A stretch of DNA of 64,000 bases from positions 1 through 64,000 of IMG/VR virus record IMGVR_UViG_3300017748_000002; one strand, given 5' to 3'. Below, in pieces: positions 44,159 to 64,000 of the stretch. The translations under genes and the position numbers were made by a program. A model generated the notes under the pieces. It searched no databases and had not been told where the DNA came from. It was given only the letters and a program-made list of their open reading frames with translations. The first letter of the stretch is position 1. Each line of letters opens with the position of its first letter. The DNA comes from a virus.

Positions 44159-44159
44159 T

Positions 44160-45539: not shown

Positions 45540-45542
45540 AGA

Positions 45543-48500: not shown

Positions 48501-48656
48501 AGAAAAGTTAGAATTATCCGCATCAATGGCGGTGGCGGCGGTGATGATAACGGCGGCCGGGATAACGGTGATATTGGACGCGATCCATCTGGTACAGCTG
48601 GTGCTGGCCAATTTGGAGGTGGCGGTCCTACTGGTATGTCGGATTGGGGTGATTAA
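45543..48656 (+). CDS. VrlC/DUF4815-like virion structural protein, N-terminal part
   Basis: YKDDF....NYHRILF..GR.LQARELTQ.Q, APGADR, RT.EESGDY, DFRP, RFTM.DIG.LE.RI..L, VNPF. Confidence 0.8.
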   Translation: MATTFTTTTFGTTYKDDFKDSDNYHRILFNAGRALQARELTQMQTIIQTEIQRMGSNIFKEGGKVNGGNLTLNNLEFIKLTSGALPAAASDVVGETFTDGDGIKVKVIKAVEATGSDPDTIYVEYTSTSSGTAGASAVRCSNGGTLTHDGGSLDALTIASADATGQGLEASITSGSFYVQGHFVFVKQQSAFVNKYSKTGTKELGFKLVQDIVTATDDNDLFDNQGAAPNNAAPGADRYRISLTLSTRDLLAASDNFVFLCKIINDKIGKQVTVNSSYNIIRDFMALRTKEESGDYIVKNFVAKFEPLNDSNLSLDVSNGLAYVDGYRIDIPAEDITVPKAQTTQAENGDTVIPRYGNYVLFDSNYNLPENHARSNLFDGVHDSAGAVPNHIGYARIRGYEEDGADHRAYLYDIQMNSGQNFANTASIGTGANEYLAVKQVSGRAVIQGTADNNLLFPLSYARPSTIAYTSSNDITLQKKYTVTTNASGVLASNQVISGGDTFTSSTSWVATDTSGKVASLTFNITLGSPAGTEFNITGGGGNTRTYDIYALQVHKGPSNFSAKTKSLAAQQTLTLNMQNDLDSDGNGTQFLSLRKADIYKVEGINLGSTSGADLTNFFTVDNGQRDNFYGIGRLIKNSGVGNLPNGNAVVQFRYFTHSTSGTHFDITSYPSGDSVGYDGIQDYRQQDGNTVSLRNVLDFRPVAGILADSDGTMRYTFDSAGNGSQITPLLPANQNAFDINPTYYLTRKDRLVVATKDENLDRYPQAGELRYIQGEPALTGAKLPAVPDGSLEIYQFTLNPFTIHESDLSSRYVEAKRFTMADIGNLEKRIDDLQDLTVLSLLENATEALTIVDSAGNERTKAGFIADPFDNFNFSDVERDEYRAFIHERSGVLHPQAMSNVIRLLYDSANSTSTTRGVFRPSGDILTLSVDSSHVFIDQPLATETENVNPFAVFSGEGHITLSPRSDTWYERRQAPDAIVDGGTIRKVRIIRINGGGGGDDNGGRDNGDIGRDPSGTAGAGQFGGGGPTGMSDWGD

Positions 48657-48690
48657 TAAATGAAAAAGACAAATATAACGGAGTGTCATA

Positions 48691-50766
48691 ATGTCTAACG
48701 TTGATATTCGCAGAGAAAAAATTGGAACGGAAATCGTTGATGTGTCGTTCATTCCTTTCATGCGTGGCAGAAAAGTTTTCTTTAAGGCACAAGGCCTTCG
48801 CCCTAACACTCGGTATTTTCCGTACTTTGGTAAGAAAGCGATTGATGATTACACACGTGAAGAAACAACGTTTAAATCATTTGCAGAACGTCAGGATGAT
48901 AATTCAAACGTTTTCCAAAAAGCACTTGCGCACCCTGATGGATCTACAAATCTAATTTCTGACGCTTCAGGTGTCATCATTGGTTCATTTGTTATTCCTA
49001 GCAGAGATAATTTTAAGTTTAGAACTGGTACTCGCGAATTTAAACTGGTAGATGTATCCGGTGCAGGTACTGATGAGTCCCAAGCTATTAGTACTGCTAG
49101 AGTTCCTTTTACTTCAACTGGTATTTTACAAACATATCAAGATACTGTTCGTGTTACAAGAATTGTTACAACAACACAGATTATTCGAAGAGATCCTCTT
49201 GCTCAATCATTCTTTGTAGATGCTGTTGAAAATAAGAATGGCATTTTTATAACAAAGATTAGAGCATATTTTGCAACAAAGTCAACTGGTGTTCCGGTTC
49301 AAATGCAAATCCGGCCAGTTGTCGCTGGTGTTCCATCAAATCAACCTTTACCAGATGCTTCTAAATTTTTAGATCCAGCTAGTATTAATATTCCAACTGA
49401 TGCGTCTGATCTCAATAATATTCGTTCACATGGTACAGACTTTGAATTTGATGAGCCAGTTTATCTAGAGCCAAATAAAGAATATGCCTTTGTTATTTTG
49501 GCAGATAGCGTTGATTATACTGTTTTTGTCGCAAAGACATATGAATTCTTGATTGGTTCAACCGAAGCAAGAGTTAATAAGCAACCTACTCTTGGTTCTT
49601 TGTTTATGTCTCAAAACTCTTCAACTTGGTCGCCAGATCAAGATCGTGATATGATGTTTCAGATATATCGCGCAGAGTTTGCAAGTTCTGGTTCAGCGTT
49701 GTTCACCAATGCTACAGACATACGTGAATTAACAAATGATAATCAACTTCTTGCTGATTCAGGTGGAACTGAATGTACAGTGTTTATGGTTGGCCACGGT
49801 CTCGCAAAGAACGATAAAGTCTTTATCTCTGGTGTATCAGACGCAGATGTAAGTGGCGCGTTTAGTTTTGCCAATTCCGTTACTGGATCAAGAACAATCA
49901 CAAAGGTAGATCATACCGGATTTACTTTTGCCGCTGACTCAAACGCTCAAGGATCTCTCTTTGTCGGTGGTGATGGCATGATCGTTACTCGTAACATGAT
50001 GTACGATAGATTCAGACCAAGTGTTCAAACGCTATTACCCGGAGCCGATACAACTCTTTCTGCTACGGCAAAATTAGTAAGTGGTTCTTCATACGCTGGA
50101 AATAGAAACACAAATCCAACATATACAAAAGACGGTGCATATACACCTATTACATTGAATGAAAATAACTTTTTAACAGCACCTTGTATTGTTTTAAACG
50201 ATTCAAATGCAGTTGTTCATAGCTTGTCTGGCGCCTCATTCGATATGAAAGTCGATTTTGCTACATCAGACACAAAAGTTTCACCAATTATCGATCTACA
50301 AAGATCTGATTTGATAATGCGTGAAAACATTATTGACAAACAGGATAATTCAGCTACAAGTGGATTCAATGTTCCAATTCGATTTGTTGATGAAACTGAT
50401 GCTAGTCTTGGTTCACATGCTGCGAAACACATTACAACACCAGTTACTCTTGAAGAACCAGCTGTTGGTTTGAGCATTAAGTTTGGTGCTAATCGTCCAT
50501 CCGCTGCAGGATTTAGAGTATACTTTAAGACTGGTACACCAGATGATAACCTTGATGATCTATCATACACTGAGTTAAGTGAAGTCACAAGCAATCCAGC
50601 TGATGAACAAGTTACAGTATTCCGTGAGTACGAATATCTTGCTGGTGGTGATGTTGGTAACCTTGATTCATTTACTCAATTCCAAGTAAAGATTGTTATG
50701 ACTTCAACAAATTCATCTAAAGTTCCTGCTATTACAGACTTAAGAGTGATTGCTCTAGTAACATGA
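48691..50766 (+). CDS. VrlC/DUF4815-like virion structural protein, C-terminal part
   Basis: IPFMR.R.V.F...GLRPNTR.F..F, DPLAQSF, F.F..PVYL, GSLF.SQN..TW..DQ..D..F, SP.ID, FQVKIV. Confidence 0.8.
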   Translation: MSNVDIRREKIGTEIVDVSFIPFMRGRKVFFKAQGLRPNTRYFPYFGKKAIDDYTREETTFKSFAERQDDNSNVFQKALAHPDGSTNLISDASGVIIGSFVIPSRDNFKFRTGTREFKLVDVSGAGTDESQAISTARVPFTSTGILQTYQDTVRVTRIVTTTQIIRRDPLAQSFFVDAVENKNGIFITKIRAYFATKSTGVPVQMQIRPVVAGVPSNQPLPDASKFLDPASINIPTDASDLNNIRSHGTDFEFDEPVYLEPNKEYAFVILADSVDYTVFVAKTYEFLIGSTEARVNKQPTLGSLFMSQNSSTWSPDQDRDMMFQIYRAEFASSGSALFTNATDIRELTNDNQLLADSGGTECTVFMVGHGLAKNDKVFISGVSDADVSGAFSFANSVTGSRTITKVDHTGFTFAADSNAQGSLFVGGDGMIVTRNMMYDRFRPSVQTLLPGADTTLSATAKLVSGSSYAGNRNTNPTYTKDGAYTPITLNENNFLTAPCIVLNDSNAVVHSLSGASFDMKVDFATSDTKVSPIIDLQRSDLIMRENIIDKQDNSATSGFNVPIRFVDETDASLGSHAAKHITTPVTLEEPAVGLSIKFGANRPSAAGFRVYFKTGTPDDNLDDLSYTELSEVTSNPADEQVTVFREYEYLAGGDVGNLDSFTQFQVKIVMTSTNSSKVPAITDLRVIALVT

Positions 50767-50984: not shown

Positions 50985-51552
50985 TCTATCAGATCCTATT
51001 GCAACTTGGGTAACTAAGTCGAATGAAATGGGAGCCGATATTGGAGATCTAGCGACGCTAAGTGATTCAGCCGCGACGCTTGTTCATGCCATTAACGCCA
51101 TAGATTCAGATATTGGTAATCGAGCATCACTTACTACTCCGGCGGTTGACTTAGTAACTGCTATAAATAATCTTGCGAATACGTTCTTTGAGGTAACAGA
51201 TTCTGCTGATATTAAGAATTACTTTGTTAGTACTTCAGGTATTGGTGGCATTACGTTTGATAGCGGATCCGGTGGATCGCGTGGATCATTTACTCTTGTG
51301 AATGATGCAATTAACGCATCTAAGATTCAAGATTTTGCTGTCCAACAAGAACACTTTAATGATAGCTCTGTTCCAAGTCGAGCATTTAGAGCTCAGGTAG
51401 TTTCTAATTCGGCCTTAGCTGATTCTGCGGTATCATTTCACAAAATTCAAAGTGGAGCAATCAAATCGACTAACTTTGCTTCAACAACTAAATTAGAAAT
51501 TAAAAATTCAGCGGGAACAACGCTTAAAACAATGTACGGACCTGGAGTTTAA
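50965..51552 (+). CDS. Tail fibre / fibritin-like structural protein
   Basis: INLSD....W..KSN....DIGDL..L...A.LV.AIN repeats; pentapeptide-like AV...KI repeats. Confidence 0.6.
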   Translation: MAQTTINLSDPIATWVTKSNEMGADIGDLATLSDSAATLVHAINAIDSDIGNRASLTTPAVDLVTAINNLANTFFEVTDSADIKNYFVSTSGIGGITFDSGSGGSRGSFTLVNDAINASKIQDFAVQQEHFNDSSVPSRAFRAQVVSNSALADSAVSFHKIQSGAIKSTNFASTTKLEIKNSAGTTLKTMYGPGV

Positions 51553-51554
51553 TA

Positions 51555-52502
51555 ATGACAGTATTTCCACTTAAATATGATGGCAGTGATTCGCTGCAAG
51601 ATATGACTGATGCTGAACTTGAAAGAGTCACGTATTACACACAAGCAGCATACGCTGCAGTTTTGAGTGCTAATGGAATCGGATACGTTTTTGCTGGATC
51701 AGGCGAAACGGATATCGGTTCTGCGTCAGACACTAGTTCTACACAACAAACGAACGGCACTAGAAAACTTACTAACTCTGGTACTACTCAAGGTTACCCA
51801 GGCTATCCAGGGACTGGTACAGAAACAGACGCAACATACGATTACCGTCAAAACAGATCTTCACCGACTGCTGTTTCGGCTGCGGTGTTTAACGAACACG
51901 GCCCAGTGTATTATGATTCTGGAAGTGATCATATCATTCCATTTACTACCGAAGCTCAAATTGCTGATGTGATCACTAATCAAGCGATTACAAATATGAG
52001 AACTGGTGATGAGGTTGGTTCTTATAGAGTATCAACATCTACTCCTTCAAACGGAGGAGCTGGAACATGGACTGATAAAGGTACATTCTTCGCAGATACT
52101 ACTTATTCAGCTGGTACAACAACATATAAGCTTTGGGTAAAAACTGCGTTAGATAGTATTCCCGGATCAGATACGTTTCCTCTTAACCTTGAAGGTGCTG
52201 GCACAACTGGTCAGTTACAACAAGCTGAGATTACAGCTGCTAGCGGGCTGGTACAAAACGTCTTGTTACCTTCTCTGCAGCGTAAAATGTCAAGTGGTCT
52301 ATACTACACAGTGGCTACATCAACATCTGGAGAGACTCGTGGAACATTCACAAACACTCGTCAAACTGGAACAACAAATTCACAGTCTCTCGGAGTAGAT
52401 ACAATTGGCGGTGTTTACGGTACGTTTTATCGGTCTATAAGTAGTCCATCAGGCAGTGCCTCAACAGTAACAACATATTATTTTAATATGATCCCTGCAT
52501 AA
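51555..52502 (+). CDS. Putative tail/receptor-binding structural protein
   Basis: 315 aa Thr/Ser/Gly-rich, internal repeat of PL....LQ. Confidence 0.55.
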   Translation: MTVFPLKYDGSDSLQDMTDAELERVTYYTQAAYAAVLSANGIGYVFAGSGETDIGSASDTSSTQQTNGTRKLTNSGTTQGYPGYPGTGTETDATYDYRQNRSSPTAVSAAVFNEHGPVYYDSGSDHIIPFTTEAQIADVITNQAITNMRTGDEVGSYRVSTSTPSNGGAGTWTDKGTFFADTTYSAGTTTYKLWVKTALDSIPGSDTFPLNLEGAGTTGQLQQAEITAASGLVQNVLLPSLQRKMSSGLYYTVATSTSGETRGTFTNTRQTGTTNSQSLGVDTIGGVYGTFYRSISSPSGSASTVTTYYFNMIPA

Positions 52503-52512: not shown

Positions 52513-53043
52513 ATGAAAACAAGAGACGGAAGATTAGTCAATGCTCGATTTACAGATACAGATAATACGCTGATCAGAGCAGAATTTAAAAATTATGAAA
52601 ACGATGGTGCTGTAACTATTGCGCACCATGCATTTAATCCTGAAAATAAAATTGTTCATGAAATTTTACAAGAGTTTTCTCCAGAAGATCTTGAGAGAAA
52701 CTACGTAGAATTTAATAAAGAAGAATCAATTCGCGTAGCTTACTTTAACAAGTTCGCCGAAAGATTTGATGAGATTGTTGACTATCTTGATTCCGGCGTT
52801 GCACCTCAAGCACCGGCCGAAGAAAAGCCAATTAATCTTACATCAATTAAAGAAATTGGAAATAATGCTGAAGAATTCTTTAAACTGAAACTTGAAGTAT
52901 TTGAACTTGAAGAAGTAAAAAATTCAAAGAATCGCAAATGGAAAGCGAGTATGCGAAAGGCAACTACCAGCCTCGAACTTCTCTCGTTACTTTATGAGGT
53001 GTATTCGACCCTTGAAAATGAAGAAGGCGAACGTCTGGATTAA
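52513..53043 (+). CDS. Hypothetical protein (possible tail-fibre chaperone)
   Basis: FFKLKLEVFE..EVK.S.....K..MRKA; follows fibre-like genes. Confidence 0.55.
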   Translation: MKTRDGRLVNARFTDTDNTLIRAEFKNYENDGAVTIAHHAFNPENKIVHEILQEFSPEDLERNYVEFNKEESIRVAYFNKFAERFDEIVDYLDSGVAPQAPAEEKPINLTSIKEIGNNAEEFFKLKLEVFELEEVKNSKNRKWKASMRKATTSLELLSLLYEVYSTLENEEGERLD

Positions 53044-53632
53044 ACTCTTCTCCAAGAAACAGGTACTCTCCAGGATAGCGCAAGTTAGCGTCTAAAATAA
53101 AGTTATTGTTATACTGAGCCCACTTATTCCAATTAGTCATCCAAGTTTCGGGTAAGAATTTAAGCTTCAGTCTTTCTTTTACAGAGTCTTCTACAAAATA
53201 CTGTTCACCATTAACGGGGCCGCAAGTGGTCCCGTTTTTGATATAATACTCCATCCAATATTCAGAATCCGACACAAATTTATCATAGATGTATTTACAA
53301 TCTTTTGGATAATACTTTTGAAATCCACCTTGTAGTCTATAATTTAATTCTGGATCTACATCATCCCACCAACAATATGCTCCAATAAACTCACCGCGTT
53401 CGATCGGATAATTTATCGCATCCATATAATCATTGATAAAGCTCATATCTATATCAATAACTACGACTGGTTCGTCGATATCTAAAGACATTGGAACTAA
53501 CTTATTCCATTGTGCTTTTCCAATAGTCTCTTCACGAATCCAATTTACGTTTGGTATTTTTGAATCAATGTACTCTTCGTATTCTGGGCCGTATTTGTCG
53601 CCAGTACGGACAGCGTAGACTCGTGGTTCCAT
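52964..53632 (-). CDS. Glycosyltransferase-like protein (KYGPEY family, DxD)
   Basis: GDKYGPEY, WNKL, IDID, WW, GEQYF, LLHF. Confidence 0.65.
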   Translation of the reverse strand: MEPRVYAVRTGDKYGPEYEEYIDSKIPNVNWIREETIGKAQWNKLVPMSLDIDEPVVVIDIDMSFINDYMDAINYPIERGEFIGAYCWWDDVDPELNYRLQGGFQKYYPKDCKYIYDKFVSDSEYWMEYYIKNGTTCGPVNGEQYFVEDSVKERLKLKFLPETWMTNWNKWAQYNNNFILDANLRYPGEYLFLGEEFNPDVRLLHFQGSNTPHKVTREVRGW

Positions 53633-54138
53633 AGTTCGTCCTTCGCATGATTGTATAGTGTGATTGGCATTTTACCACCATCCCACAAATATGAATCACA
53701 TACTTTATCGTAAGTATTATATTCTATTTCTTTGTATAAAAACTCGTCAATGCCTTTATTATATTTTACCATATAATAGTCAGGATCTTCAGCAAACTTA
53801 TCATGAATATGCGAGTGATCTCCTGACCAAGACATGATAGAACTATTCAATGGTGTATGAAAAGGCTGCCTCCACCATGCGTGAAGAAGAGTAAATTTAT
53901 CACGCCAAAGATGATCGATAGTGCCCCCAATAAAAACGTCGAGATCAAAATACAGGTATTGTCCGGTTTTAAAAAGATCAAACAGGCGAAGCTTATCATA
54001 CACACCACCGTATAAAATATCGTCAACAACAGATAGTCTATCATATTGAGCTCCTATGTTATCTAGCATATATTCTATATTGTGTATCCAATATGATTGT
54101 CCATACGCTGGTGGTGTGTTGAGTAATACTATTTCCAT
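53545..54138 (-). CDS. Glycosyltransferase-like protein (DxD)
   Basis: DKLRLF, LYFDLDV, WW, LNSSIMSW, GIDEFL. Confidence 0.65.
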   Translation of the reverse strand: MEIVLLNTPPAYGQSYWIHNIEYMLDNIGAQYDRLSVVDDILYGGVYDKLRLFDLFKTGQYLYFDLDVFIGGTIDHLWRDKFTLLHAWWRQPFHTPLNSSIMSWSGDHSHIHDKFAEDPDYYMVKYNKGIDEFLYKEIEYNTYDKVCDSYLWDGGKMPITLYNHAKDELWNHESTLSVLATNTAQNTKSTLIQKYQT

Positions 54139-55052
54139 TTTTCAACCATCGTGTCGAGTTTACAATGACAAGAAATAATATCACAAGTATACGGATCAGC
54201 CGGTAATCTCCACACTGTATTAACGTTTCCAAGTGGCAAGTCAGCTCCAGCACAACATCTTCGAATAGTACCATCTGCTTCAACAGATAAGCTTTTAATA
54301 CCAGCCATACATTTCCATCCACGGAAATCTACTTCTTTGTTAGCGATCATATCAGGATGAGCTCGTTCTTCTCCATCGATATAGATTTTCCAAGGATACG
54401 GCCAGTTAACTTTTAATGGCAAGCATCTTTTCTCTCTCGATTGAGTGATCCACTTAATTTGTTCAGGACTATAATCCATTAGCTTACCATCGCCTTGAAT
54501 ACTTACTCGAGTCAATTTAGCATTCACATCAACAGTAGCTTTACTTTCTATAATTCTTTCAACTAACTTTTGAGCTCTATCGAAATTTTCAGGAGTCACT
54601 TGTAAATTAGCGACAATCTCTCCTTTTGATTGCATTGCTTGAATTACGTCAAAGAAATGATCATCGTCAGCAAACTCATAATGCCAACTGAATACAATGT
54701 AAGCATTAAGATCTTCAGGCCATTGATTCCAATATCGTAAAGTGCGACTTCCATTTGTACAAATTTCAATAATTCTATTTGGAGAGTTAATCTTTTTACA
54801 GAATTCGTCAAACTTTGGCATGAGTGTTGGTTCACCACCTAACAAGGATACTAACATATACTCATTATTCTTTTCAAAGTCGTTGAGAAGATCTACATAG
54901 TTTTCCCAGTCAGCTGGCCATCTGTTTTTTCCGCCATAATGATATGGATGACAATAGCTACACTTATAATTACACACGTCATGAAGCATGATATTTACAA
55001 TGCCGCAATCTGGATTGTTGTTTGTAATTCTCATACGATTATCTATTTCCAT
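54129..55052 (-). CDS. Radical SAM protein with C-terminal twitch/SPASM-like domain
   Basis: CNYKCSYC, GGEPT, TNGS; GWKCMAG...V.ADG...RCC...C...SCHC. Confidence 0.88.
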   Translation of the reverse strand: MEIDNRMRITNNNPDCGIVNIMLHDVCNYKCSYCHPYHYGGKNRWPADWENYVDLLNDFEKNNEYMLVSLLGGEPTLMPKFDEFCKKINSPNRIIEICTNGSRTLRYWNQWPEDLNAYIVFSWHYEFADDDHFFDVIQAMQSKGEIVANLQVTPENFDRAQKLVERIIESKATVDVNAKLTRVSIQGDGKLMDYSPEQIKWITQSREKRCLPLKVNWPYPWKIYIDGEERAHPDMIANKEVDFRGWKCMAGIKSLSVEADGTIRRCCAGADLPLGNVNTVWRLPADPYTCDIISCHCKLDTMVEKWK

Positions 55053-55930
55053 TTAGTTAGTATAGTTTCAAGCCGACAGGTACAAGGTTTATGAGTATCA
55101 CAAATGATCGGATCTTTCGGAAGCTCAAAATACGTATTAATATTTCCTAAGCTACCACCTACTTGTTTTGTGCATCGCCATATTTCGCCATTGGTGTGTA
55201 CATAAATTCTATCAAGGCCAGCATTACATTTCCACCCTTGAAACCAATAGTTTTCTGATGCTATCATTTCTGATAATTTGCCGGCACTACACTCGAGTGG
55301 TAAAACAAAGTTTGGACCTGATTGAGTATTATTCCAATAATGAGATTGAATCCATTTTTTCTGTTCATCAGTATATTCAAAATAGTCAGGTCCGTCGATC
55401 ACGACTCGAGTAAACTTTGGAATTGCTTCTACTCTTAATTTTTTTTCTACTATTCTATGGTATAGTGCTTGTCCTCTTTCGTAATTATCTGGAGTCAATA
55501 AGAATGTAGCCACACACATAGCTTTGTCTTGCATGATCTCGAGAACATCAAGGTAATGGTCGTCATCTGCTTCTTCATGGTGCCAACTAAAGAGAGCAGT
55601 TGCTGTATGTTTTGGTAAGCTTTCCCAGTACCGCTTTGTTCTACTTCCATTAGTAGCGTATTCAATGTACGTACGATCATCACTAATATAATCTATAAAG
55701 TCATGAAACTTTGGCCATAAAGTTGGCTCACCACCGAGAATCTGAACATACACATATTTCTTTTTTTCTTTGATCTCGTCAATTAGATCAAGGTATCCAT
55801 CCCACTTAGTAGGCCAACGGTACGACCCATCGCGATGTTCATCACTACAATAGCTACAATTAAAATTGCAGACATTATGGACAAACAACGAGACAATACA
55901 GCAATCTGGATTTGAGTTAATTATTTCCAT
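55043..55930 (-). CDS. Radical SAM protein with C-terminal twitch/SPASM-like domain
   Basis: CNFNCSYC, GGEPT, TNGS; GWKCNAG...V..NG...RC...C....CTC. Confidence 0.88.
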   Translation of the reverse strand: MEIINSNPDCCIVSLFVHNVCNFNCSYCSDEHRDGSYRWPTKWDGYLDLIDEIKEKKKYVYVQILGGEPTLWPKFHDFIDYISDDRTYIEYATNGSRTKRYWESLPKHTATALFSWHHEEADDDHYLDVLEIMQDKAMCVATFLLTPDNYERGQALYHRIVEKKLRVEAIPKFTRVVIDGPDYFEYTDEQKKWIQSHYWNNTQSGPNFVLPLECSAGKLSEMIASENYWFQGWKCNAGLDRIYVHTNGEIWRCTKQVGGSLGNINTYFELPKDPIICDTHKPCTCRLETILTKWK

Positions 55931-56556
55931 TTGCCGAGTATCATGTACCTCGTATATTGATCTGGAGTACCTTCATTAAATCTCTTCTTACCACCATAGA
56001 GTTCTTTGACATCAGCCTGAGCTGCGAGCTCTTGACCGGTCTTGACACAGTTAATATGGTCTGGTTCGTTTGTCTTGTCATTTGACTGTAGAGCTAAAAG
56101 AGTACGCTCAGGTTCTTCATAATACTCTTTTGTTGTGTTCATATTCCACATATGCTCACATGAAGTATTTATTACTAAATGTGTACGTCTTTTTTCTGTA
56201 TAAGTAAAGTAGTCCTGATTAAAAATACGTACGTTGTCATAACCAAAAAGATCACAATACTTCCAAATCATTTTACACGCCCATGAGTCAATCTCAAAAA
56301 TATCGATCTCACGAATTTGAATATTCCACTCATCCATTAGAAATTGAATAAGAGGAAACCCATACCATCCACCAATGATTTCTACACGAAACTTTCCGTT
56401 CTCATCTCTCGGAATCTGAACGTTTGGTAAACCTTCATAAACCAGCCACTCTTTACACTTAATCTGGTTTGGATGCAAAGAATCTATCCAACGATCTAAC
56501 ATAAATGAATGATTGTGACGAAGCCATTTCATCATTTCAGCATATTCAAGTTGCAT
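55921..56556 (-). CDS. Class I SAM-dependent methyltransferase-like protein
   Basis: IIGGWYG, IFEID, VINTSCEH, LQSN, HINC motifs. Confidence 0.7.
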   Translation of the reverse strand: MQLEYAEMMKWLRHNHSFMLDRWIDSLHPNQIKCKEWLVYEGLPNVQIPRDENGKFRVEIIGGWYGFPLIQFLMDEWNIQIREIDIFEIDSWACKMIWKYCDLFGYDNVRIFNQDYFTYTEKRRTHLVINTSCEHMWNMNTTKEYYEEPERTLLALQSNDKTNEPDHINCVKTGQELAAQADVKELYGGKKRFNEGTPDQYTRYMILGKWK

Positions 56557-56586
56557 ATACTACCCTCCGGATTAAATTCTTACTTT

Positions 56587-56641
56587 ATTATACACCATTT
56601 ATGTTCTCCCGTAAACAATAAAATGAGTTTTCTGCTCACTT
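56587..56641 (-). promoter_or_regulatory. Early promoter (minus strand), collapsed copy of the repeated cassette
   Basis: Reverse complement AAGTGAGCAGAAAA-CTCA-TTTTATTG-TTTACG, 17 nt, TATAAT. Confidence 0.7.
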
Positions 56642-57012
56642 ATTATTTCAAACGAATCGTATATTTCTTTGACATTATACCATCCAACTAGATCTTCGAC
56701 AGATTCAACTGGACAACAATCTCCGTTATGCTTTTCGTTATCACCGATGAGTAGTACATCTCCTTCGAGTGTAATAGGATATGTTTTTTCGCAGTTAGCA
56801 TGAACAACTAAATCAGCATTAAGATCTACGTCGTCAAACACGAAATCCTTGTTAATAAAGATAGGGCTATTCATGAATTTTGGATCGTAGTCAATTCCTT
56901 TTACGTTGATACCACATGATGCTAACTTATGTAGAAAATCTTTTCGAGCATTGCATGCTAAGAATATGATAGAATCATAGTTAAAGTATATCGATTCAAA
57001 TTTATCAATCAT
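56599..57012 (-). CDS. Degenerate methyltransferase-like protein
   Basis: GIDYD, DFVFD, DLVVHANCEK, HNGDC resembling neighbour's INTSCEH/HINC; ATG at 57012. Confidence 0.5.
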   Translation of the reverse strand: MIDKFESIYFNYDSIIFLACNARKDFLHKLASCGINVKGIDYDPKFMNSPIFINKDFVFDDVDLNADLVVHANCEKTYPITLEGDVLLIGDNEKHNGDCCPVESVEDLVGWYNVKEIYDSFEIISEQKTHFIVYGRT

Positions 57013-57697
57013 AGCTTTTCCATAATTTAACTGTATCTTTGTCAGCCTCGTCGAGCTCGTATGACTCCTCCACGATACCTTTGTTCCTCGCAATATGGGA
57101 TGTATTGAAAATAGAAATCTTTCCTTTTAACTCGAATCCTTGCCGATTATAATTTGTCACAAACCCTTCATCCCAGAACTTGAGACGATTATTTCTATGG
57201 TGTTGATAAAAGAGATATTTATCTAGAGACTTATATGTCCACTCAATCTTCTTCCAATTGTCATTAGTAAACTGAATAAGCCACTCAGGATTGTTGAACT
57301 TTACAAAAGAACTATTGACATGACAAGAACCGCCTTTACCATACCAAAGTAAAGATCGCTCGCGATAATCATTCCAATAGTTCCAAATCATGGTAAAATC
57401 GTTATCATTTTCAATGTCTGTAATATCGTCATGAATTAGCACGTCTAAATCAAGCCACACACCCTTCTCGTGTTTTTCCATAAGAATCAACTTCTCATAG
57501 GTAAACACACGATCCGTATCAAATTTTCTTAATGATTTGATATTTTTTACCTTTACTTCTTCGCGTAACATGTTATAATTATCTGTATAGCATGTTAATG
57601 TAAAGGGTTTTTTATAGTGCTTTTTGAGGCCGCCGTACAGCCGATTTACGTATTCGGGACCGTACTTGTCGCCCCATTTCAGTGTATAGAAATCCAT
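57005..57697 (-). CDS. Glycosyltransferase-like protein (KWG.KYGPEYVN family)
   Basis: LKWGDKYGPEYVNRL, CYTD, EKL, WLDLDV, VNSS; ATG at 57697. Confidence 0.7.
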   Translation of the reverse strand: MDFYTLKWGDKYGPEYVNRLYGGLKKHYKKPFTLTCYTDNYNMLREEVKVKNIKSLRKFDTDRVFTYEKLILMEKHEKGVWLDLDVLIHDDITDIENDNDFTMIWNYWNDYRERSLLWYGKGGSCHVNSSFVKFNNPEWLIQFTNDNWKKIEWTYKSLDKYLFYQHHRNNRLKFWDEGFVTNYNRQGFELKGKISIFNTSHIARNKGIVEESYELDEADKDTVKLWKSYD

Positions 57698-57705
57698 TAT
57701 AAATA
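57698..57705 (+). promoter_or_regulatory. T4-type late promoter driving the radical SAM operon
   Basis: TATAAATA 32 nt upstream of ATG 57738. Confidence 0.7.
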
Positions 57706-57737
57706 CCTCGTGTAACACTATATATAAAGGTTTCATT

Positions 57738-59162
57738 ATGAGCGTAGATGATCAGTTCCCCTCCTCCACTTTTTGTGCTTTACCGTGGATGCATCTTTCT
57801 ACTAGACCAAATGGTCATATGAGAGTATGTTGTACTGCGAATGCTTCAGGCGTCGCAGTAAACGCGAGCTCTACCAATAAGACTGTTTCAGAGTCTGGTG
57901 TACTTCGTAATGATGACGGTAAACCATCAAATCTCGCCACCACCGGTTTGATGGAATCGTGGAATAACGAATATATGCGTGGCGTTAGAAGGATGATGTT
58001 AAATGGAGAACAACCAAGCTCCTGTACAAAATGTTATAAAGAAGAAGAAGCTGGCCACATTTCTAAAAGAATCTGGGAAACTCGTAAGTGGATCAAAGAC
58101 CAAGGCGGGATTGAACCAATTATCGAAGGCACAGCAGAAGATGGATCAGTGGCTCCAAGAATACGCTATATCGACCTTCGCCTTGGCAGTAAGTGTCAGC
58201 TTGCATGCGTTATGTGCTCTCCTCATGATTCAAGTAATTGGGTAAAAGAACATAAAAAGATTTACCCTACACTTGAAAACAACAATCTGAAAAAGTCAAT
58301 GGCTTGGGAAAAAGAATCCGGCAAGTTAGCTTGGTCAGGTGGATCCTACAATTGGCATAAGAAGAATCCAAAGTTCTGGGATGAACTATACGAAACACTT
58401 CCGCATCTACGTCAATTGTACTTTGCTGGTGGTGAGCCACTCATTATGGATGAGCACTACATGTTGCTTGAGAAATGTATTGAAGATGGATTAGCACCAG
58501 ACATTGAATTACGTTATAACTCAAATGGTATTGAGTGGCGTGATGACTTGTTTGATCTATGGTCAAAGTTTCGTAATGTTATCTTTCACTTCAGTGTAGA
58601 TGACATTGAGATGAGAAATCATTTCATTCGGTATCCATCTAACTGGGAAGTTATTACAGGTTCAATTCAAAAGATGGATGATTATCCACACGGCAATCTT
58701 ACATTGACAACAGCCACAACAATTATGGCACTTAATATTATGTACATGCCAGAATTTATTAAATGGAAACTTGAATCAAACTTTAAGTTACTCAACAAAT
58801 GGCCAAATGGTGCCGGCATTTTCAATTGTCATCTTGCTTATTGGCCACCACAACTCAACGTAAAAGTTTTGCCTGAATGGTTTAAACAAGAAGTCAGACA
58901 GAAATATGAAGAAGAGTTGTATCCATATCTAGAAGAAAACTGGCAAAAATGCACAGGAGTAGAAGCTACTGACTATGATACATGGCGCAATTCCGAATAT
59001 GGAATCAATAGACTAGAAGGACTACTTACTTTTATGGAAGCTGAAGATTGGTCTGAAAGATTACCTGAAACTGCTGAATGGTGTTATAAAGTAGGAAAAG
59101 AAAGATTCCTTGATTTCAATGAAGTCTTTCCAGATCTCGATTGGTTGGAGTGGTATAAATGA
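57738..59162 (+). CDS. Radical SAM protein with N-terminal twitch domain
   Basis: FCALPW...VCC...CTKC N-terminal cluster; CQLACVMC; FAGGEP; YNSN. Confidence 0.88.
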   Translation: MSVDDQFPSSTFCALPWMHLSTRPNGHMRVCCTANASGVAVNASSTNKTVSESGVLRNDDGKPSNLATTGLMESWNNEYMRGVRRMMLNGEQPSSCTKCYKEEEAGHISKRIWETRKWIKDQGGIEPIIEGTAEDGSVAPRIRYIDLRLGSKCQLACVMCSPHDSSNWVKEHKKIYPTLENNNLKKSMAWEKESGKLAWSGGSYNWHKKNPKFWDELYETLPHLRQLYFAGGEPLIMDEHYMLLEKCIEDGLAPDIELRYNSNGIEWRDDLFDLWSKFRNVIFHFSVDDIEMRNHFIRYPSNWEVITGSIQKMDDYPHGNLTLTTATTIMALNIMYMPEFIKWKLESNFKLLNKWPNGAGIFNCHLAYWPPQLNVKVLPEWFKQEVRQKYEEELYPYLEENWQKCTGVEATDYDTWRNSEYGINRLEGLLTFMEAEDWSERLPETAEWCYKVGKERFLDFNEVFPDLDWLEWYK

Positions 59163-60481
59163 GTACGTTTTGTCCATTAGCTTGGAACTCAATTAATTTA
59201 AGAAATAATGGTGATCTTCGGATTTGTTGTAATACCAACAGCTATAGTCCGAAGAAAGGTATCATGCGTAAAGAAGATGGTACACCGTATAACGCTGGTC
59301 GTGACGATTTAAATGAAGCACGTAATGCTGAGATTGTAAAGGACGTTCGTGTTTCAATGATGAAAGGCGAATGGAATCCTGAATGTGAACGTTGCCGCCA
59401 AGAAGAAGTGAATGGTATTAGATCAAGGAGAGAATATGAATCAGAAGATTGGGACCTTACGCTTGAAGAGGCTATGGAAAAAACTAACGAGGACGGATCC
59501 ATTGATCCTACTGATTTTGATATCGAGTTTTTCGATATTCGTTACGGCAATTTCTGCAACCTTAAATGCCGTATGTGCGGGCCCACCGACAGTCACATGT
59601 GGTATTCAGATCATGTCGCCCTTTACAATACCACCAAGTATAAAGATACTCACGATCTCATCCAACTGACTAAGAATGAAAAAGGTAAATGGTCTACAGA
59701 CCAGTATGACTGGTTTAAGAACTCAAACTTCTATTGGAATAACTTCGAGAAACATACTGGTAAAGCAAAGAAACTTTACATTGTAGGTGGTGAACCACTC
59801 ATCATTGAAGAACACTTTGAATCACTTGAAAGATTGATTGCTGCGGGTAGAGCCAAAGACATTCAGATTGAATACAACAGTAACCTGACTAACGTTACTG
59901 ACCGCATCATGAAGATATGGGAAGAGTTTAAACAGGTTCGTATTGGTGTTTCAATCGATGGTTATGCTGATGTGTTTGAATATCAAAGAACACCAGCTAA
60001 GTGGAAGTCTGTTTATAAAAACATGAAAAAACTAAACGACAATCCGAATATTAATTTAAAGGGTTGGTTTGCTTTTACAGTAACTCCGTTTAATGTATTT
60101 CATTTGCCTGAGTTTATGAAATGGAAACTTGAAGAATCTGGACTCACACGGTATAATCCTATCACTGGTCCACGTCCTATTATTACTCAACATATGTGTC
60201 ATTCACCAAAGTATTACAATGTGAAAGTTCTACCGCAAATGTTGAAGGATGAAGTCTGTGATACATACCAGGAGTACATTGATTGGGTAATGGATTCAAA
60301 TCATTCTGATCATGTGAAAAAGAAATTTATTGAGATACTCGATGGTATTATGGATTTTATGAATTCCGAAGATTTTGCAACAGACCATTTGCAAGAGTTT
60401 ATTGACCATACAAAGAAACTTGATTTGATACGTGGCCAGAATATTTTAGATGTAGTGCCACAATACGAGGGATTATTTTGA
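59159..60481 (+). CDS. Radical SAM protein with N-terminal twitch domain
   Basis: FCPLAW...ICC...CERC; CNLKCRMC; VGGEP; YNSN; SIDG. Confidence 0.88.
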   Translation: MSTFCPLAWNSINLRNNGDLRICCNTNSYSPKKGIMRKEDGTPYNAGRDDLNEARNAEIVKDVRVSMMKGEWNPECERCRQEEVNGIRSRREYESEDWDLTLEEAMEKTNEDGSIDPTDFDIEFFDIRYGNFCNLKCRMCGPTDSHMWYSDHVALYNTTKYKDTHDLIQLTKNEKGKWSTDQYDWFKNSNFYWNNFEKHTGKAKKLYIVGGEPLIIEEHFESLERLIAAGRAKDIQIEYNSNLTNVTDRIMKIWEEFKQVRIGVSIDGYADVFEYQRTPAKWKSVYKNMKKLNDNPNINLKGWFAFTVTPFNVFHLPEFMKWKLEESGLTRYNPITGPRPIITQHMCHSPKYYNVKVLPQMLKDEVCDTYQEYIDWVMDSNHSDHVKKKFIEILDGIMDFMNSEDFATDHLQEFIDHTKKLDLIRGQNILDVVPQYEGLF

Positions 60482-61428
60482 AACAGGTAGCACAAAGAAT
60501 TAGTTGGAGAACACCTGAGACTCCGTTTGCCGTTCAATGGTACATGACACCAAGATGTAATTTTGATTGTGTCTACTGTATGCCATGGGATCCGGATAAT
60601 AAGTGGTCATACTATCATGACGATAAATCTAAACCACCAACATTTGATATAATGAAAACTTACGTAGATAAGATTATTGCTCATAGGGGAAATCATATTG
60701 AATGGGGTCTTGGCGGTGGCGAACCAACTGTTATTAAAGATCTTCCAAAGCTAGTAAAATATATTCGAAAAACAGATCCGTATGACTTGACAATTTGTAC
60801 AAATGGATCTTTACCAGAAAAGAAGCTTTTAAAATTATATGAAGATCTTGACGGTATGGTTATGTCATTACACATGGACTATGTTTCAAAGAATCCAGAT
60901 GAATATATCGAGAAATTGATTGCTCTCGAAGAACAACGTAGACCTGACCAAAGTTTGACAGCACGGTTTATTGTCAATCCTCTTCATATGGAATTGATCG
61001 ATAATATGTACCAAGAACTCATGATGGCTAGTATTAATAAGATCGATTTTCGAAATGTAAAGCTATTCAACGGTGAATCATTTTATAGTAATGAGCAAAT
61101 TAAAGTGATGGAATCATGGTACGACGAGTATGGTAAACAGACATCTAATATCATTCAAACGTTTGAAGATGGATCTGAAAAAGAAGTTAATTATGAATTA
61201 ATCACTTTGAATAATGAACATTCATACACTGGTTGGTCATGTATGGCTGGTATCGAACAATGCAATATTGATCCACTTGGAAGAGTCTCGGTTGGTAATT
61301 GTGCAGTTGGAGGATCTATTGGTAATTTAAATGATAATGATTTTACTTTCCCAACTGCACCTGTGACATGTACTAAACAATGGTGTTTAGATTATTGCGA
61401 TATTCGTACGACAAAATGGAAACCTTAA
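60478..61428 (+). CDS. Radical SAM protein with C-terminal twitch/SPASM-like domain
   Basis: CNFDCVYC, GGGEPT, TNGS; GWSCMAG...IDP.G....NC...C....CLDYCD. Confidence 0.85.
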   Translation: MKQVAQRISWRTPETPFAVQWYMTPRCNFDCVYCMPWDPDNKWSYYHDDKSKPPTFDIMKTYVDKIIAHRGNHIEWGLGGGEPTVIKDLPKLVKYIRKTDPYDLTICTNGSLPEKKLLKLYEDLDGMVMSLHMDYVSKNPDEYIEKLIALEEQRRPDQSLTARFIVNPLHMELIDNMYQELMMASINKIDFRNVKLFNGESFYSNEQIKVMESWYDEYGKQTSNIIQTFEDGSEKEVNYELITLNNEHSYTGWSCMAGIEQCNIDPLGRVSVGNCAVGGSIGNLNDNDFTFPTAPVTCTKQWCLDYCDIRTTKWKP

Positions 61429-62615
61429 ACTATTCTCAAACATTCTGTCCGATGCCTTTCAATCATTCTTATATCGGACCTGAGCAAATTAAAAAACCTT
61501 GCTCGCGATTTCTATTTCCGGAAATTGACCATGACAACTATGATCAATTCATTAAAGAACTTCAACAGTACAAGTTAAAAGGTGAAAGACATCCGGGTTG
61601 CCGTAAGTGTTGGGAAGAAGAAGATGCTGGTCGAAAAAGATCACTAAGGCAAATTCATCTTGAAGTCGGTGGATTTAACTATCCATTAGTACACGATCTA
61701 GATCCTCATGATCCAAAAATTCGTTGGCTTGAATTAGCATTTTCAAATCGTTGTAATATTCGCTGTCGTATGTGTGGTCCTTTCTACTCAACAAACTGGT
61801 TTAAAGATTGGGTAGCAGTAAATGAATATGCTTTTGGTGTACCGGGTGTAGGTAAAAAGAAAGAAGACATTGAAACATGGTTAGCAACAAATGGTAATAA
61901 ACCACAAGGGTTTGACATATCGGAATTAGATGAGCATATCCCACATTTACGTATGGTAAAGATGACTGGTGGAGAGCCGTTCATCATTCCGGAATATCAA
62001 CAAATTCTAGAACGTATTGATGAGATTGGTAACGCCGAAGGTATGTGGTTGAACTATAGTACTAACCTTACAGTCCGTCCAAAGAAAAGACTCAAAGAAC
62101 TCTGGCAAAAATACGAAAAGATAATGTTTGCTGCTTCGCTTGATGGAGTAGGGCATTTCCAAGAATACCAAAGATATCCGACTCAATGGTGTGACGTGAA
62201 ACAAGTGATGGATGATCTAATGGAGATTCCTAATTCTTGGGTTGGAGTCAGATCAACTATTACGATCTATAATGTTCTCAACATGTCAGGTATTGCTAAC
62301 TGGTTTGCTGAGCAAGAAGATAAATATCATGGATTCAGCGAAGACAGTTGGTTGAATTTTGTAGCTGTGTCTGAGCCAAATTTCTTATCAATCACCGTTT
62401 TACCAAAGTGGGCTAAAGATATGGTAGCTGAAAGATTATCATGGTCTGCACCATCAAGAAAAGTCCAAGATAATTTTGATCAAATAATCAATTATATGTA
62501 CAACCAAGATAATTCACACCTTCTTCCAAAATTCAAAGATTACACGAATAAATTAGATGCTGTTCGTAATGAAAGTTTTAAAGAAGTCAACCCTGAATTT
62601 GCGAGTCTAGTATGA
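61416..62615 (+). CDS. Radical SAM protein with N-terminal twitch domain
   Basis: FCPMPF...PC...GCRKCW; CNIRCRMC; TGGEP; STN; SLDG; ATG at 61416. Confidence 0.87.
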   Translation: METLNYSQTFCPMPFNHSYIGPEQIKKPCSRFLFPEIDHDNYDQFIKELQQYKLKGERHPGCRKCWEEEDAGRKRSLRQIHLEVGGFNYPLVHDLDPHDPKIRWLELAFSNRCNIRCRMCGPFYSTNWFKDWVAVNEYAFGVPGVGKKKEDIETWLATNGNKPQGFDISELDEHIPHLRMVKMTGGEPFIIPEYQQILERIDEIGNAEGMWLNYSTNLTVRPKKRLKELWQKYEKIMFAASLDGVGHFQEYQRYPTQWCDVKQVMDDLMEIPNSWVGVRSTITIYNVLNMSGIANWFAEQEDKYHGFSEDSWLNFVAVSEPNFLSITVLPKWAKDMVAERLSWSAPSRKVQDNFDQIINYMYNQDNSHLLPKFKDYTNKLDAVRNESFKEVNPEFASLV

Positions 62616-63517
62616 AATACGAAGAGTTATCATTTGACGATCTAGGAACTAAACGGCAAAGGCCGATGTTTTTAAGTACCTTTACTCAATTTCGTGCTAG
62701 CATGAATATGAGAACATACCCACATGATCCTCATGCTTATACAAAACACTTCTTAAATGAAATTGATATGTGGATTCATGCTCATAAATGGGTTCAGTAT
62801 AGAGGATTAGAACGCTTTCCAATACGTGAAGCCATACATGGAACGACTCATACACTTGATGAATTGCATTATCTACATAAAGGAAAGATTTGTGTGTTTG
62901 ACGGTGAATACAGATATCACGAAAGATTGCTTGGTTGGAAATTAAAAAAGATAAAAGCTGCTGATGAAATTTCGTTTGGTGATGTTCTTGTAGTATCATA
63001 TCCATCGTGTATTACTACAAATTATCTTCCAGATTTTGATGAAGTTCTTGATCATTGCTATAAAATAAATGTGCCAGTTCATATTGATGGAGCTTGGTTT
63101 GGTCAGTGTCGAAACTTTTATTTTAATGCTAGCCATCCAGCAATTCAATCAGTGTCTGTATCTTTATCGAAAGCTCTTGGTATGGGATCAAATAGAATTG
63201 GTATTCGTTACAGCCGAGAAAAAGTCGCAGGTCCTATTTCTATTATGAATGACTATAATTATTGTAATGTGTCTGATATGTGGATCGGTGTTGAAATGAT
63301 GAAATACTATGGTCCTGATTTTTGGTGGAAAAATTATACACCGTTGTATCAAAAAGTGTGTAAAGACTTTGGTTTAGAAGAATGCCACTCAATTCATCTT
63401 GGCAAAGGTGATACATATTATGGAATACGTACACCACTTCGATTGTTAATTGAAGGTAAGTACGATGAGCGTGGAACTGATAGAGGATTAAATGACATCG
63501 AAAGAAACGAAAAATAG
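62612..63517 (+). CDS. PLP-dependent enzyme (fold type I aminotransferase/aldolase-like)
   Basis: VHIDGAW (PLP Asp), SLSK (Schiff-base Lys), RIG. Confidence 0.7.
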   Translation: MKYEELSFDDLGTKRQRPMFLSTFTQFRASMNMRTYPHDPHAYTKHFLNEIDMWIHAHKWVQYRGLERFPIREAIHGTTHTLDELHYLHKGKICVFDGEYRYHERLLGWKLKKIKAADEISFGDVLVVSYPSCITTNYLPDFDEVLDHCYKINVPVHIDGAWFGQCRNFYFNASHPAIQSVSVSLSKALGMGSNRIGIRYSREKVAGPISIMNDYNYCNVSDMWIGVEMMKYYGPDFWWKNYTPLYQKVCKDFGLEECHSIHLGKGDTYYGIRTPLRLLIEGKYDERGTDRGLNDIERNEK

Positions 63518-64000
63518 AATCATTGATAATCCATTTGACATGGATACAATTGACATGATTCTTGAAAATACTCAAGATGAGCGTAGATACCTCGGTAAAG
63601 AAAAAAAGAACTGGGTACGAAGATTACCTGAAGCTGCTCAAGAATATATGAATAGACAGATGGATTGTTTCCAAGGTCGGTGGGTCTTTGAATACTTTCA
63701 TTCTGATGTCAATGTTTTATATCATACCGACACTATCCCTGGTAATGATGGTGATCTTGGTTGTATTGTTCCGATTGATTGGAGTGGTCATCAACCAGCA
63801 ACTCTTATGTACAAATGGTGGTCAGATCGAAGAGTAATATATGCTGGGTCAAATCAAGTTCGATATGAAGACACTGGTGAATTAGAATACTTACATTTAG
63901 GTTATCATTCAGTTGATATGATTTTTGAATGGGATAGAGAGAAAGCGCTTATATTCGATTGTAAGCAATTACATTCAGCTCGAAAGTTTAATCAAAGCGC
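63492..64000 (+). CDS. 2OG-Fe(II) oxygenase-like protein (partial, runs off window)
   Basis: Hand translation from ATG 63492: LYHTD...IVP...LIFDCKQLHSA (HxD...H facial triad). Confidence 0.65.
   Translation, partial: MTSKETKNRIIDNPFDMDTIDMILENTQDERRYLGKEKKNWVRRLPEAAQEYMNRQMDCFQGRWVFEYFHSDVNVLYHTDTIPGNDGDLGCIVPIDWSGHQPATLMYKWWSDRRVIYAGSNQVRYEDTGELEYLHLGYHSVDMIFEWDREKALIFDCKQLHSARKFNQS

Follow-up and report, generated by a model that had tools for sequence, protein, structure and literature searches.

The window analysed here is the first 64,000 nucleotides of IMG/VR virus record IMGVR_UViG_3300017748_000002, a linear viral contig of 123,332 bp with a CheckV completeness of about 73%. Its right-hand end holds the beginning of a gene island that occupies positions 52,964-79,410 of the contig and, from the open reading frames (ORFs) listed for the window and for the contig beyond it, consists of 30 genes over 26.4 kb. 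The island encodes 12 radical S-adenosylmethionine (rSAM) enzymes, three paralogous GT-A-like proteins, two further ORFs with a DxD motif, an FkbM methyltransferase, a methyltransferase-like protein, a pyridoxal phosphate (PLP) enzyme, a QueC-like PP-loop ATPase, a NodU/CmcH-type carbamoyltransferase and six SGNH-like paralogues. A preliminary description of the window had proposed that the phage encodes a tailoring pathway, with enzymes that handle sugars, next to its tail-fibre genes, and our analysis supports this. Judged from its gene matches the phage, an uncultured one, is a T4-like marine myovirus: T4-type PHROG matches on the contig cover the portal, major capsid, sheath, terminase, baseplate wedge and DNA polymerase, and its capsid protein shares 66% identity with the one of Phage C48C1 and about 59% with those of Melnitz and HTVC008M.

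The island has two divergent arms. The minus-strand arm has seven genes (52,964-57,736); the plus-strand arm starts at 57,738 and, as the preliminary description had anticipated for both the divergence and the continuation, runs out of the window, ending at 79,410. The start codons at 57736 (-) and 57738 (+) are separated by a single nucleotide, so both promoters must sit within coding sequence. Most neighbouring genes overlap and no intergenic gap exceeds 55 nt, leaving no room for a separate precursor-peptide gene; for this reason a precursor of a ribosomally synthesised and post-translationally modified peptide (RiPP) within the island was rejected. Membrane segments are predicted in none of the 30 proteins, all of which are soluble. 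At the left edge the convergent ORFs 52513-53043 (+) and 52964-53632 (-) overlap by 80 nt.

The CxxxCxxC motif is present in the translations of all six rSAM ORFs of the window, which lie within 11 kb on the strands originally given, and of six more beyond it. The Pfam rSAM family PF04055 (cut-off 29.5 bits) is passed by 11 of these 12, with scores of 44.2, 47.7, 32.6, 42.5 and 52.5 bits for the five passing ORFs of the window. The sixth, at 61380, reaches 27.9 bits and is recognised instead by NCBIfam model NF033640 (cut-off 170 bits). All 11 six-frame PF04055 matches of the 123-kb contig fall within 54.7-78.9 kb, and a confinement of this kind argues that the clustering is not due to chance. 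The contig's 12 rSAM genes, all inside the island, belong to four families: NF033640 (five genes), R8/R19, S3 and R5.

The five members of NF033640 score 399.9, 373.2, 292.7, 221.8 and 207.9 bits, while the seven others, at 14.5-51.5 bits, fall outside the family. Three of the five are plus-strand genes of the window: 57738..59162 (399.9 bits), 59159..60481 (373.2 bits, with 1,164 homologues at E<=1e-10) and 61380..62615, whose start may be 61416 (292.7 bits). Each of the three ORFs for which an N-terminal twitch had been predicted therefore passes this model. The scores of 207.9 and 221.8 bits belong to the two N-twitch genes beyond the window, 64018-65205 and 65854-67035, both on the plus strand. 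In an alignment of eight sequences (A1) the N-terminal cysteines C5, C23, C76 and C79 are invariant and precede C133/C137/C140; the rSAM Cys triad and a GGEP motif are also invariant. The Pfam SPASM domain (PF13186, cut-off 21.5 bits) matches residues 13-100 of the 57738 ORF at 22.2 bits. The family is large, with 7,410 representatives (clusters at 50% identity) at E<=1e-30 in our profile search, yet none of its thousands of diverse members was found to have been studied: the family is catalogued, and the full-text literature search returned no characterised member and no paper on a radical SAM enzyme with an N-terminal twitch. Many of the top representatives (P0121-P0133 and others), about 800-870 amino acids (aa) long, are tandem fusions of two N-twitch rSAM units.

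The seven other rSAM enzymes have Cys-rich C-terminal regions, which we recognised by eye from their cysteine patterns. Within the window these are the minus-strand R8-family genes 54129..55052 (PF04055, 44.2 bits) and 55043..55930 (47.7 bits) and the plus-strand R19-family gene 60478..61428 (52.5 bits). Beyond it, on the plus strand, are three S3-family genes, 69330-70316, 70309-71373 and 71364-72308 (39.6, 46.9 and 32.8 bits), and the R5-family gene 78304-79410 (57 bits). The C-terminal twitch/SPASM domains proposed for the three window genes are visible as cysteine patterns. PF13186 stays below its cut-off at the C terminus of the 54129, 70309 and 71364 ORFs (15.9, 14.0 and 17.4 bits) and does not match the 55043, 60478, 69330 and 78304 ORFs. 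The suggested comparison with BtrN, MoaA, the anaerobic sulfatase maturase anSME and viperin gave no assignment: the best island scores on the NCBIfam models moaA, viperin and sulfatase_rSAM were 46.8, 47.3 and 25.8 bits, against cut-offs of 284, 180 and 349. No island rSAM reaches the cut-off of the BtrN-like NCBIfam model, and the N-twitch profile matched 21 sequences of solved structures without BtrN among them.

The three DxD glycosyltransferase-like ORFs of the window, all on the minus strand, are paralogues in which D96 and D98 are invariant (alignment A4, 18 sequences), and their original description stands. Two match phrog_1962 ‘glycosyltransferase’: GT17 at 53545..54138 (E 5.2e-5) and GT11 at 57005..57736 (E 4.2e-7). 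The third, GT21 at 52964..53632, has no Pfam or PHROG match of its own and is placed by alignment A4. We modelled GT11, and Foldseek matched the model, which is of only moderate confidence (pLDDT 65), to alpha-1,3-galactosyltransferase, glycogenin, the UGGT catalytic domain, LgtC and LARGE1 with E values of 2e-6 to 4e-5 and TM scores of 0.39-0.56. By modelled fold and DxD motif together, GT11 classes as a retaining GT-A enzyme (GT6/GT8/GT24-like). No island ORF passes PF01501 (Glyco_transf_8), whose sole match on the contig, at 23,586-23,957, lies outside the island. The two further DxD ORFs, 68557-69357 and 72265-72927 (+), are recognised at the level of the motif, and no model names them.

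The PLP enzyme (62612..63517, +) was expected from the preliminary description and is confirmed by fold, with a model pLDDT of 89.7. VIA-align gave Z scores of 17-18 over about 260 residues to MalY, PatB, ACC synthase, Asp aminotransferases and MppP/Plu4, and the Foldseek list also holds HisC and NifS/IscS; Pfam gives only a weak Pyridoxal_deC match. Lys187 and Asp159 are invariant among 20 sequences (alignment A3). The modelled fold is that of the fold-type-I group containing class I amino-acid aminotransferases, C-S lyases and ACC synthase. BtrN-type twitch rSAM dehydrogenases pair with an aminotransferase in aminoglycoside pathways, and a two-cluster rSAM beside a PLP enzyme could similarly be an oxidise-then-aminate pair. 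Unlike BtrN, the island enzymes have their twitch at the N terminus and no BtrN-family sequence match, and the PLP enzyme is class-I-like in the matches listed. The proposed route through a twitch dehydrogenase and a sugar aminotransferase was not supported in its specific form: no sugar aminotransferase (DegT/DnrJ/EryC1) appears among the 50 VIA-align entries listed or in the Foldseek list, an absence that does not by itself exclude that activity.

The preliminary description also listed two methyltransferase-like ORFs. On the minus-strand arm the MT3-family ORF 55921..56556 has weak support for such a label (PF08003 at E 0.035, CmoB at E 8.6e-4, and an Atlas cluster named ‘Methyltransferase domain-containing’ at 0.97). 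The neighbouring m10-family ORF 56599..57093 has no Pfam or PHROG family. The listed TTG start of m10 overlaps the upstream gene by 89 nt, and its true start is probably the ATG at 57012; the median length of the family is 139 aa. The H-x-D...H motif on which an oxygenase had been proposed is visible by eye in 63492..64034 (+), which crosses the window end at 64000, but no Pfam or NCBIfam family matches this ORF. It may be a cupin/2OG-type (2-oxoglutarate) protein, and an Atlas lead points to DUF6445, in 27% of one cluster. Atlas look-ups otherwise returned unnamed viral clusters.

The plus-strand arm beyond the window adds further enzymes. The FkbM methyltransferase (65189-65857) scores 43.7 bits on PF05050 (cut-off 22.7) and 42.1 on TIGR01444 (37.7). 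The carbamoyltransferase (72915-74237) scores 125.5 bits on PF02543 and 166.5 on PF16861, though only 135 on the NodU equivalog, far below its cut-off of 1000. The QueC-like PP-loop ATPase (67872-68618) has an SGGADS motif and passes PF06508 (24.5 against 22 bits) over its C-terminal 60 residues only; its PF01171 score is below the cut-off. The six SGNH-like paralogues, one at 67025-67900 and five in a row at 74186-75031, 74968-75729, 75722-76639, 76618-77505 and 77490-78317, all share an invariant Ser13 and His253 (alignment A5), and one reaches 19.0 bits on PF13472 (cut-off 32.9).

The island lies between VrlC and short fibres upstream and a long fibre and neck genes downstream, and so falls in what is known as the host recognition cluster of pelagimyophages, a variable VrlC-to-neck island that contains fibre genes. 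The N-terminal part of VrlC (45543..48656, +) has a Pfam DUF4815 match of 193.5 bits and resembles the VrlC regions of C48C1 and HTVC008M. The C-terminal part (48691..50766, +) aligns in tblastn along 100% of its length with the HTVC008M ‘VrlC protein’ (28.8% identity) and also matches the Mosig ‘putative VrlC protein’ (32.3%). VrlC is split here into two adjacent ORFs, whereas the records of HTVC008M and C48C1 annotate a single gene. The left flank is completed by two short fibre-like ORFs without a Pfam family (50965-51552 and 51555-52502, +), whose orthologues stand directly upstream of the island in the related viral loci L006, L007 and L036. To the right are a 116-aa fibre-associated ORF (79466-79816, +) resembling ORFs annotated ‘L-shaped tail fiber protein assembly’, the long fibre of 1097 aa (79826-83119, +), and neck genes (84502-87232, +) homologous to the adaptor, head-closure and sheath-stabiliser genes of HTVC008M. 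At the equivalent position C48C1 has only fibre-type genes, and HTVC008M (record positions 56402-59681) has a minus-strand ferrochelatase and four annotated 2OG-Fe(II) oxygenases beside its fibres. Neither has rSAM genes there.

The peripheral tail proteins have an unusual composition. In the long fibre the dipeptide Asp-Ser occurs 40 times against 10.6 expected, a count reached in none of 500 shuffles; Asp-Thr is absent against 9.9 expected, Ser-Asp occurs seven times, and there is no cysteine. The residue after Asp-Ser is A, T, V or I at 17 of the 40 sites, and S or G often follow. The short fibre-like ORF 50965-51552 has six Asp-Ser against 1.8 expected. Taken together, 15 peripheral tail proteins (42347-52502 and 79826-83119) contain 99 against 43.7 expected (0/1000 shuffles), a 2.3-fold excess, with Asp-Thr depleted (23 against 45.2), and the excess persists when the long fibre is left out (59 against 33.1, 0/1000 shuffles). 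Enzymes of the island, core proteins of head and tail, and the remainder of the genome all have observed-to-expected Asp-Ser ratios of 0.75-0.84. We considered whether such an excess is a general trait of fibres and rejected this, as none of 12 HTVC008M and none of eight C48C1 tail proteins shows it at p<0.05. Among viral loci bearing the gene cassette, sets of Cys-poor ORFs (at least 150 aa, Cys below 0.5%, a crude selection that includes several near-duplicate loci) gave ratios of 1.3-2.0 in L006, L007, L010, L020 and L029. The pattern is a suggestive lead on the acceptor of the pathway.

General O-glycosylation in Bacteroidetes takes place outside the cytoplasm. Its motif, (D)(S/T)(A/I/L/V/M/T) (PMC8550257), resembles the Asp-Ser-X of the long fibre, with the differences that Asp-Thr is absent from the fibre and that S or G often follow. 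A specific scheme, which we regard as rather unlikely, is that Ser in a hydrophobic-Asp-Ser-(Ala/Ser/Gly) sequon of exposed fibre and outer-baseplate proteins would be glycosylated in the cytoplasm and the sugar or the Ser then remodelled by the twelve rSAM enzymes acting in relay. If it were true, sequon and relay together would be a coat chemistry not known in any virus.

In another reading, radical enzymes act directly on side chains of the fibres, or on a peptide encoded elsewhere, by cross-linking, epimerisation or Ser oxidation, with sugars secondary. An excess of Asp-Ser accompanied by depletion of Asp-Thr suggests a Ser-specific site, the PLP enzyme is of amino-acid type by fold, and the weak NCBIfam matches of the rSAM enzymes are mainly to peptide maturases. 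Characterised SPASM/twitch rSAM enzymes are mostly maturases of peptides or proteins. We nevertheless consider direct modification rather unlikely: besides the missing room for a precursor gene, no RiPP-recognition-type family is found among the Pfam and NCBIfam matches of the island, the long fibre has no Cys, and glycosyltransferase genes accompany the core in phages and bacteria alike.

The rSAM genes are under purifying selection. Measured against orthologues in related loci, the ratio of nonsynonymous to synonymous substitution (dN/dS) is 0.036-0.149 for 11 of the 12; the twelfth has no orthologue of at least 60% identity. Within the window the values are 0.132 and 0.051 for the R8-family genes at 54129 and 55043, 0.048, 0.042 and 0.053 for the N-twitch genes at 57738, 59159 and 61380, and 0.069 for the R19-family gene. 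As dS is high (0.57-2.85) these ratios are approximate. The relaxed selection that would have counted against a functional pathway is thus not seen. The DNA is also found repeatedly: the whole 11 kb is covered in two seawater metagenomes with a handful of differences, and at least 92% of sampled words from 57,738-63,517 (5.8 kb) are present in 16 runs from 10 further studies (2019, 2023, 2025).

A T4-type late-promoter motif, TATAAATA, stands at 57698..57705 (+), 32 nt ahead of the plus-strand operon. Of the 20 copies on the contig, 13 lie no more than 66 nt upstream of a start codon on the same strand, mostly those of tail and head genes. It is the placement of TATAAATA, and not its count, that is suggestive.

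Scanning IMG/VR for orthologues of the 59159 gene gave 33 loci at 62-94% identity, and clustering of ORFs took in 34 sources, these loci and the present contig, many of them truncated and several near-duplicates. Among the 34 the N-twitch family recurs in 33, S3 in 26, the PP-loop gene in 23, MT3 in 21, a second N-twitch group in 19, R5 in 15, the PLP-like gene in 13 and R8 in 11. The island genes therefore recur together in related phages, as the preliminary description had suggested checking. The block of glycosyltransferase and methyltransferase genes that is inverted here follows R5 in plus orientation in L028 and L029, as does part of it in L020. A complete phage genome of 518 kb also carries the cassette; its capsid protein shares only about 37% identity with the present one. 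Of ten ORFs tested immediately upstream of the cassette, six matched tail fibre, tail sheath or baseplate-fibre connector proteins, three had no match and one was an HNH endonuclease. When the 11 kb were compared with 50,697 phage records by Megablast, no match was found, and tblastn of the N-twitch rSAM against the same records found only four distant ones (22-25% identity), HTVC008M and C48C1 not among them. The R8 rSAM gave partial matches only, to six Campylobacter phage records. Ten further families of the viral cassettes were searched against Pfam, and seven had no match.

Several other features of these loci were noted. By eye, an ORF with a ThyX-like motif lies inside the cassette in some of them (L009:8643-9302, L015, L027 and L034), and others contain large ORFs (474-502 aa) with the look of B12-binding rSAM enzymes. 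In many viral loci (for example L009:138-2636 and L010:2973-5081) the MT3 gene is preceded by a domain of about 230 aa that is repeated, has a DGD/DxD motif and belongs to no Pfam or PHROG family; a single-domain form occurs in bacterial loci (L044:20288-20998).

A scan of species genomes found ten further loci, nine of them in metagenome-assembled genomes (MAGs) of Bdellovibrionota on contigs of up to 3.0 Mb. The tenth, L037, is an 18-kb contig binned in a Verrucomicrobiales MAG, with matches up to 78% identical; as 12 of its 12 ORFs match the phage cassette, it is probably viral and misbinned. The bacterial loci contain three or four N-twitch genes, a PLP-like gene, R5 and S3, and are 61-62% identical to the phage in R5 and 65-67% in one N-twitch gene. 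They run in the order N-twitch rSAM, PLP-like, GT2. In L042 two GT2 genes lie inside the cassette with a PP-loop gene beside it, and in L044 the genes after the cassette encode a GT2, a PMT_2-type GT-C, a flavin oxidoreductase and another three proteins with GT2-type matches. Bdellovibrionota thus share the core of the island, N-twitch paralogues, PLP-like gene, R5, S3 and PP-loop gene, but add GT2, PMT_2 and polytopic membrane proteins where the phage island is wholly soluble. NF033640 is found above its cut-off in 31 of 151 sampled Bdellovibrionota genomes, with up to 11 matches in one genome, and in none of 14 control genomes. Our literature search found no paper on radical SAM enzymes in Halobacteriovorax. 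The presence of the rSAM core among GT2 and PMT_2 genes strengthens the earlier suggestion of a modified glycan. Because the core is expanded in predatory Bdellovibrionota, the sequon scheme could be extended to a shared ‘predator surface’ toolkit for docking onto bacteria.

A glycan pathway need not act on the virion. The island might instead edit the O-chain or capsule of the host during infection, for example to block superinfection, and host O-chain modification has been proposed for the glycosyltransferases of this region (Zaragoza-Solas et al. 2020, PMC7029224). Genes of GT8 and GT25 type and UDP-sugar enzymes on the contig would fit such a role, as would the association of the bacterial homologues with membrane glycosyltransferases. 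We think host-envelope remodelling somewhat unlikely. The island contains no membrane protein, flippase, polymerase or polyprenyl-phosphate transferase; its late-promoter motif and place in a tail operon fit a virion role better than an early takeover of the host; and the excess of Asp-Ser is restricted to peripheral virion proteins.

Sets of rSAM, PLP, carbamoyltransferase, methyltransferase and glycosyltransferase genes are typical of small-molecule pathways. The product could accordingly be a diffusible metabolite derived from a sugar or nucleoside, like an aminoglycoside or nucleoside antibiotic and unattached to the virion; all island enzymes are soluble, and work on cyanophages has speculated on ‘antibiotic synthesis genes’ including an rSAM (PMC12801897). 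Against it, we recognised no scaffold-forming enzyme or exporter, the cassette is linked to tail genes again and again at differing points of insertion, and the bacterial context is one of glycan assembly with membrane glycosyltransferases. We hold this to be very unlikely.

Still further down the scale is hypermodification of DNA, in the form of a modified base or glycosylated DNA. It was an alternative in the preliminary description and is now the least supported, and we regard it as highly improbable. The rSAM and PLP enzymes do occur in known thymidine and 7-deazaguanine pathways, the island has a QueC-like PP-loop ATPase and glycosyltransferases, and the ThyX-like ORF in some viral cassettes, recognised by eye from its motif, would also fit. 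The island, however, is in the tail module and not the replication module, its bacterial homologues are among glycan-assembly genes, and the 123-kb contig, at its estimated completeness, yielded no TGT/DpdA and no ThyX match.

The explanation we prefer, tentatively, is a late-expressed cytoplasmic pathway for glycan tailoring, whose substrates are probably peripheral tail proteins of the phage itself. Carbohydrate tailoring is suggested by the combination of glycosyltransferases with carbamoyl-, methyl- and acyl-handling enzymes and an ATPase of a carboxylate-amidating type. It is also suggested by the GT2/GT-C context in bacteria and by the phage's own UDP-sugar genes: outside the island the contig encodes Glf, two GT25 proteins, a GT8 protein, an NAD epimerase/dehydratase and a UDP-glucose-dehydrogenase-like protein. 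A reaction in the cytoplasm on an acceptor made by the phage is favoured by the lack of a membrane component, the placement in a tail operon and the late-promoter motif.

What the data show directly is which genes are present, their families and folds, where the island lies, the selection on it and its co-occurrence in phages and bacteria; for the tailoring pathway we infer every chemical step, the timing and the acceptor. The island would be transcribed late, together with the tail genes. Its glycosyltransferases would add sugars from UDP-sugars made by host and phage, and the rSAM enzymes would then abstract hydrogen from unactivated C-H bonds, so that residues are oxidised, epimerised or rearranged. 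The PLP enzyme could aminate a resulting carbonyl and the PP-loop enzyme amidate a carboxylate, after which carbamoyl, methyl and acyl groups would be put on or taken off. The acceptor is probably the fibres and outer baseplate proteins of the phage, possibly at Asp-Ser sites.

A number of observations weigh against this picture. The PLP enzyme sides with amino-acid-type class I enzymes and not with sugar aminotransferases, and most characterised twitch enzymes, as noted above, work on peptides. Searches of solved-structure sequences with the island rSAM enzymes matched the generic rSAM core only, with no close characterised enzyme; the best match to the N-twitch profile, 8vpo, which may belong to a paper on rSAM cyclopropyl synthases, covers the core alone (E 4e-11). 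Motifs or matches under the threshold are the basis for naming two of the five DxD ORFs, the SGNH-like set and the ‘oxygenase’, and no nucleotidyltransferase (NTP_transferase) match was found on the roughly 73%-complete contig. The Asp-Ser correlation is drawn from few and partly related genomes, and the ratio is 0.94 in L021, 1.07 in L036 and 0 in small sets. The window has ten copies of TATAAATA against 5.5 expected, a count reached in five of 100 shuffles and not above chance. Finally, of the RNA-labelled runs, X20 gave two contigs (216 and 151 nt) and X19, probably a DNA run, five pieces; with so few short contigs the RNA libraries show neither transcription nor silence.

Virion glycosylation by phage enzymes has a precedent in mycobacteriophages, where, in the system attributed to Freeman et al. 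in 2023, glycosyltransferases encoded near structural genes reportedly decorate virion proteins. That system is said to have no rSAM enzyme, to involve another type of host and phage, and to be far smaller. The preliminary description knew of no characterised system with the architecture of the island, and we found none either. Its gene content is nevertheless in print twice, in passing and without analysis (PMC7029224, PMC5332604). The pelagimyophage host recognition cluster, as presented in PMC7029224, is likewise a variable VrlC-to-neck region with fibres and glycosyltransferases; the passages concerned do not analyse rSAM genes, and the enzyme block here is 26.4 kb long with 12 of them. 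A passage of Nishimura et al. 2017 (PMC5332604) records 12 rSAM genes and an A-type Fe-S carrier in an environmental viral genome of T4-like type, dealing with Fe-S-related content and not with location, family or function. Our contig resembles that genome in having 12 rSAM genes and an IscA/HesB-type carrier.

The 12 rSAM genes make up about a tenth of the known part of the genome, an unusual scale for a virus, and for one with a host from oxygenated seawater. Should the product decorate fibres, a hidden post-translational chemistry would underlie the way abundant marine phages recognise their hosts, and prediction of host range from sequence would miss part of the picture. The Asp-Ser pattern provides a concrete site for a mass-spectrometric search.

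Elsewhere on the contig, no match was found to a 2Fe-2S ferredoxin or to an Asp/Asn hydroxylase, at the same completeness of about 73%. The IscA/HesB-type A-type Fe-S carrier lies at 108378-108659 (PF01521, 38 bits), just before the DNA polymerase gene, and could serve the 12 Fe-S enzymes. The sugar genes outside the island form two groups. One comprises the UDP-galactopyranose mutase at 18689-19777, the two GT25 genes at 22029-23368 and the GT8 gene at 23259-23996, which sits at its Pfam cut-off. In the other, at 117445-120398, the NAD epimerase/dehydratase, a UDP-glucose/GDP-mannose-dehydrogenase-like ORF of 282 aa and a C5 cytosine DNA methylase stand side by side.

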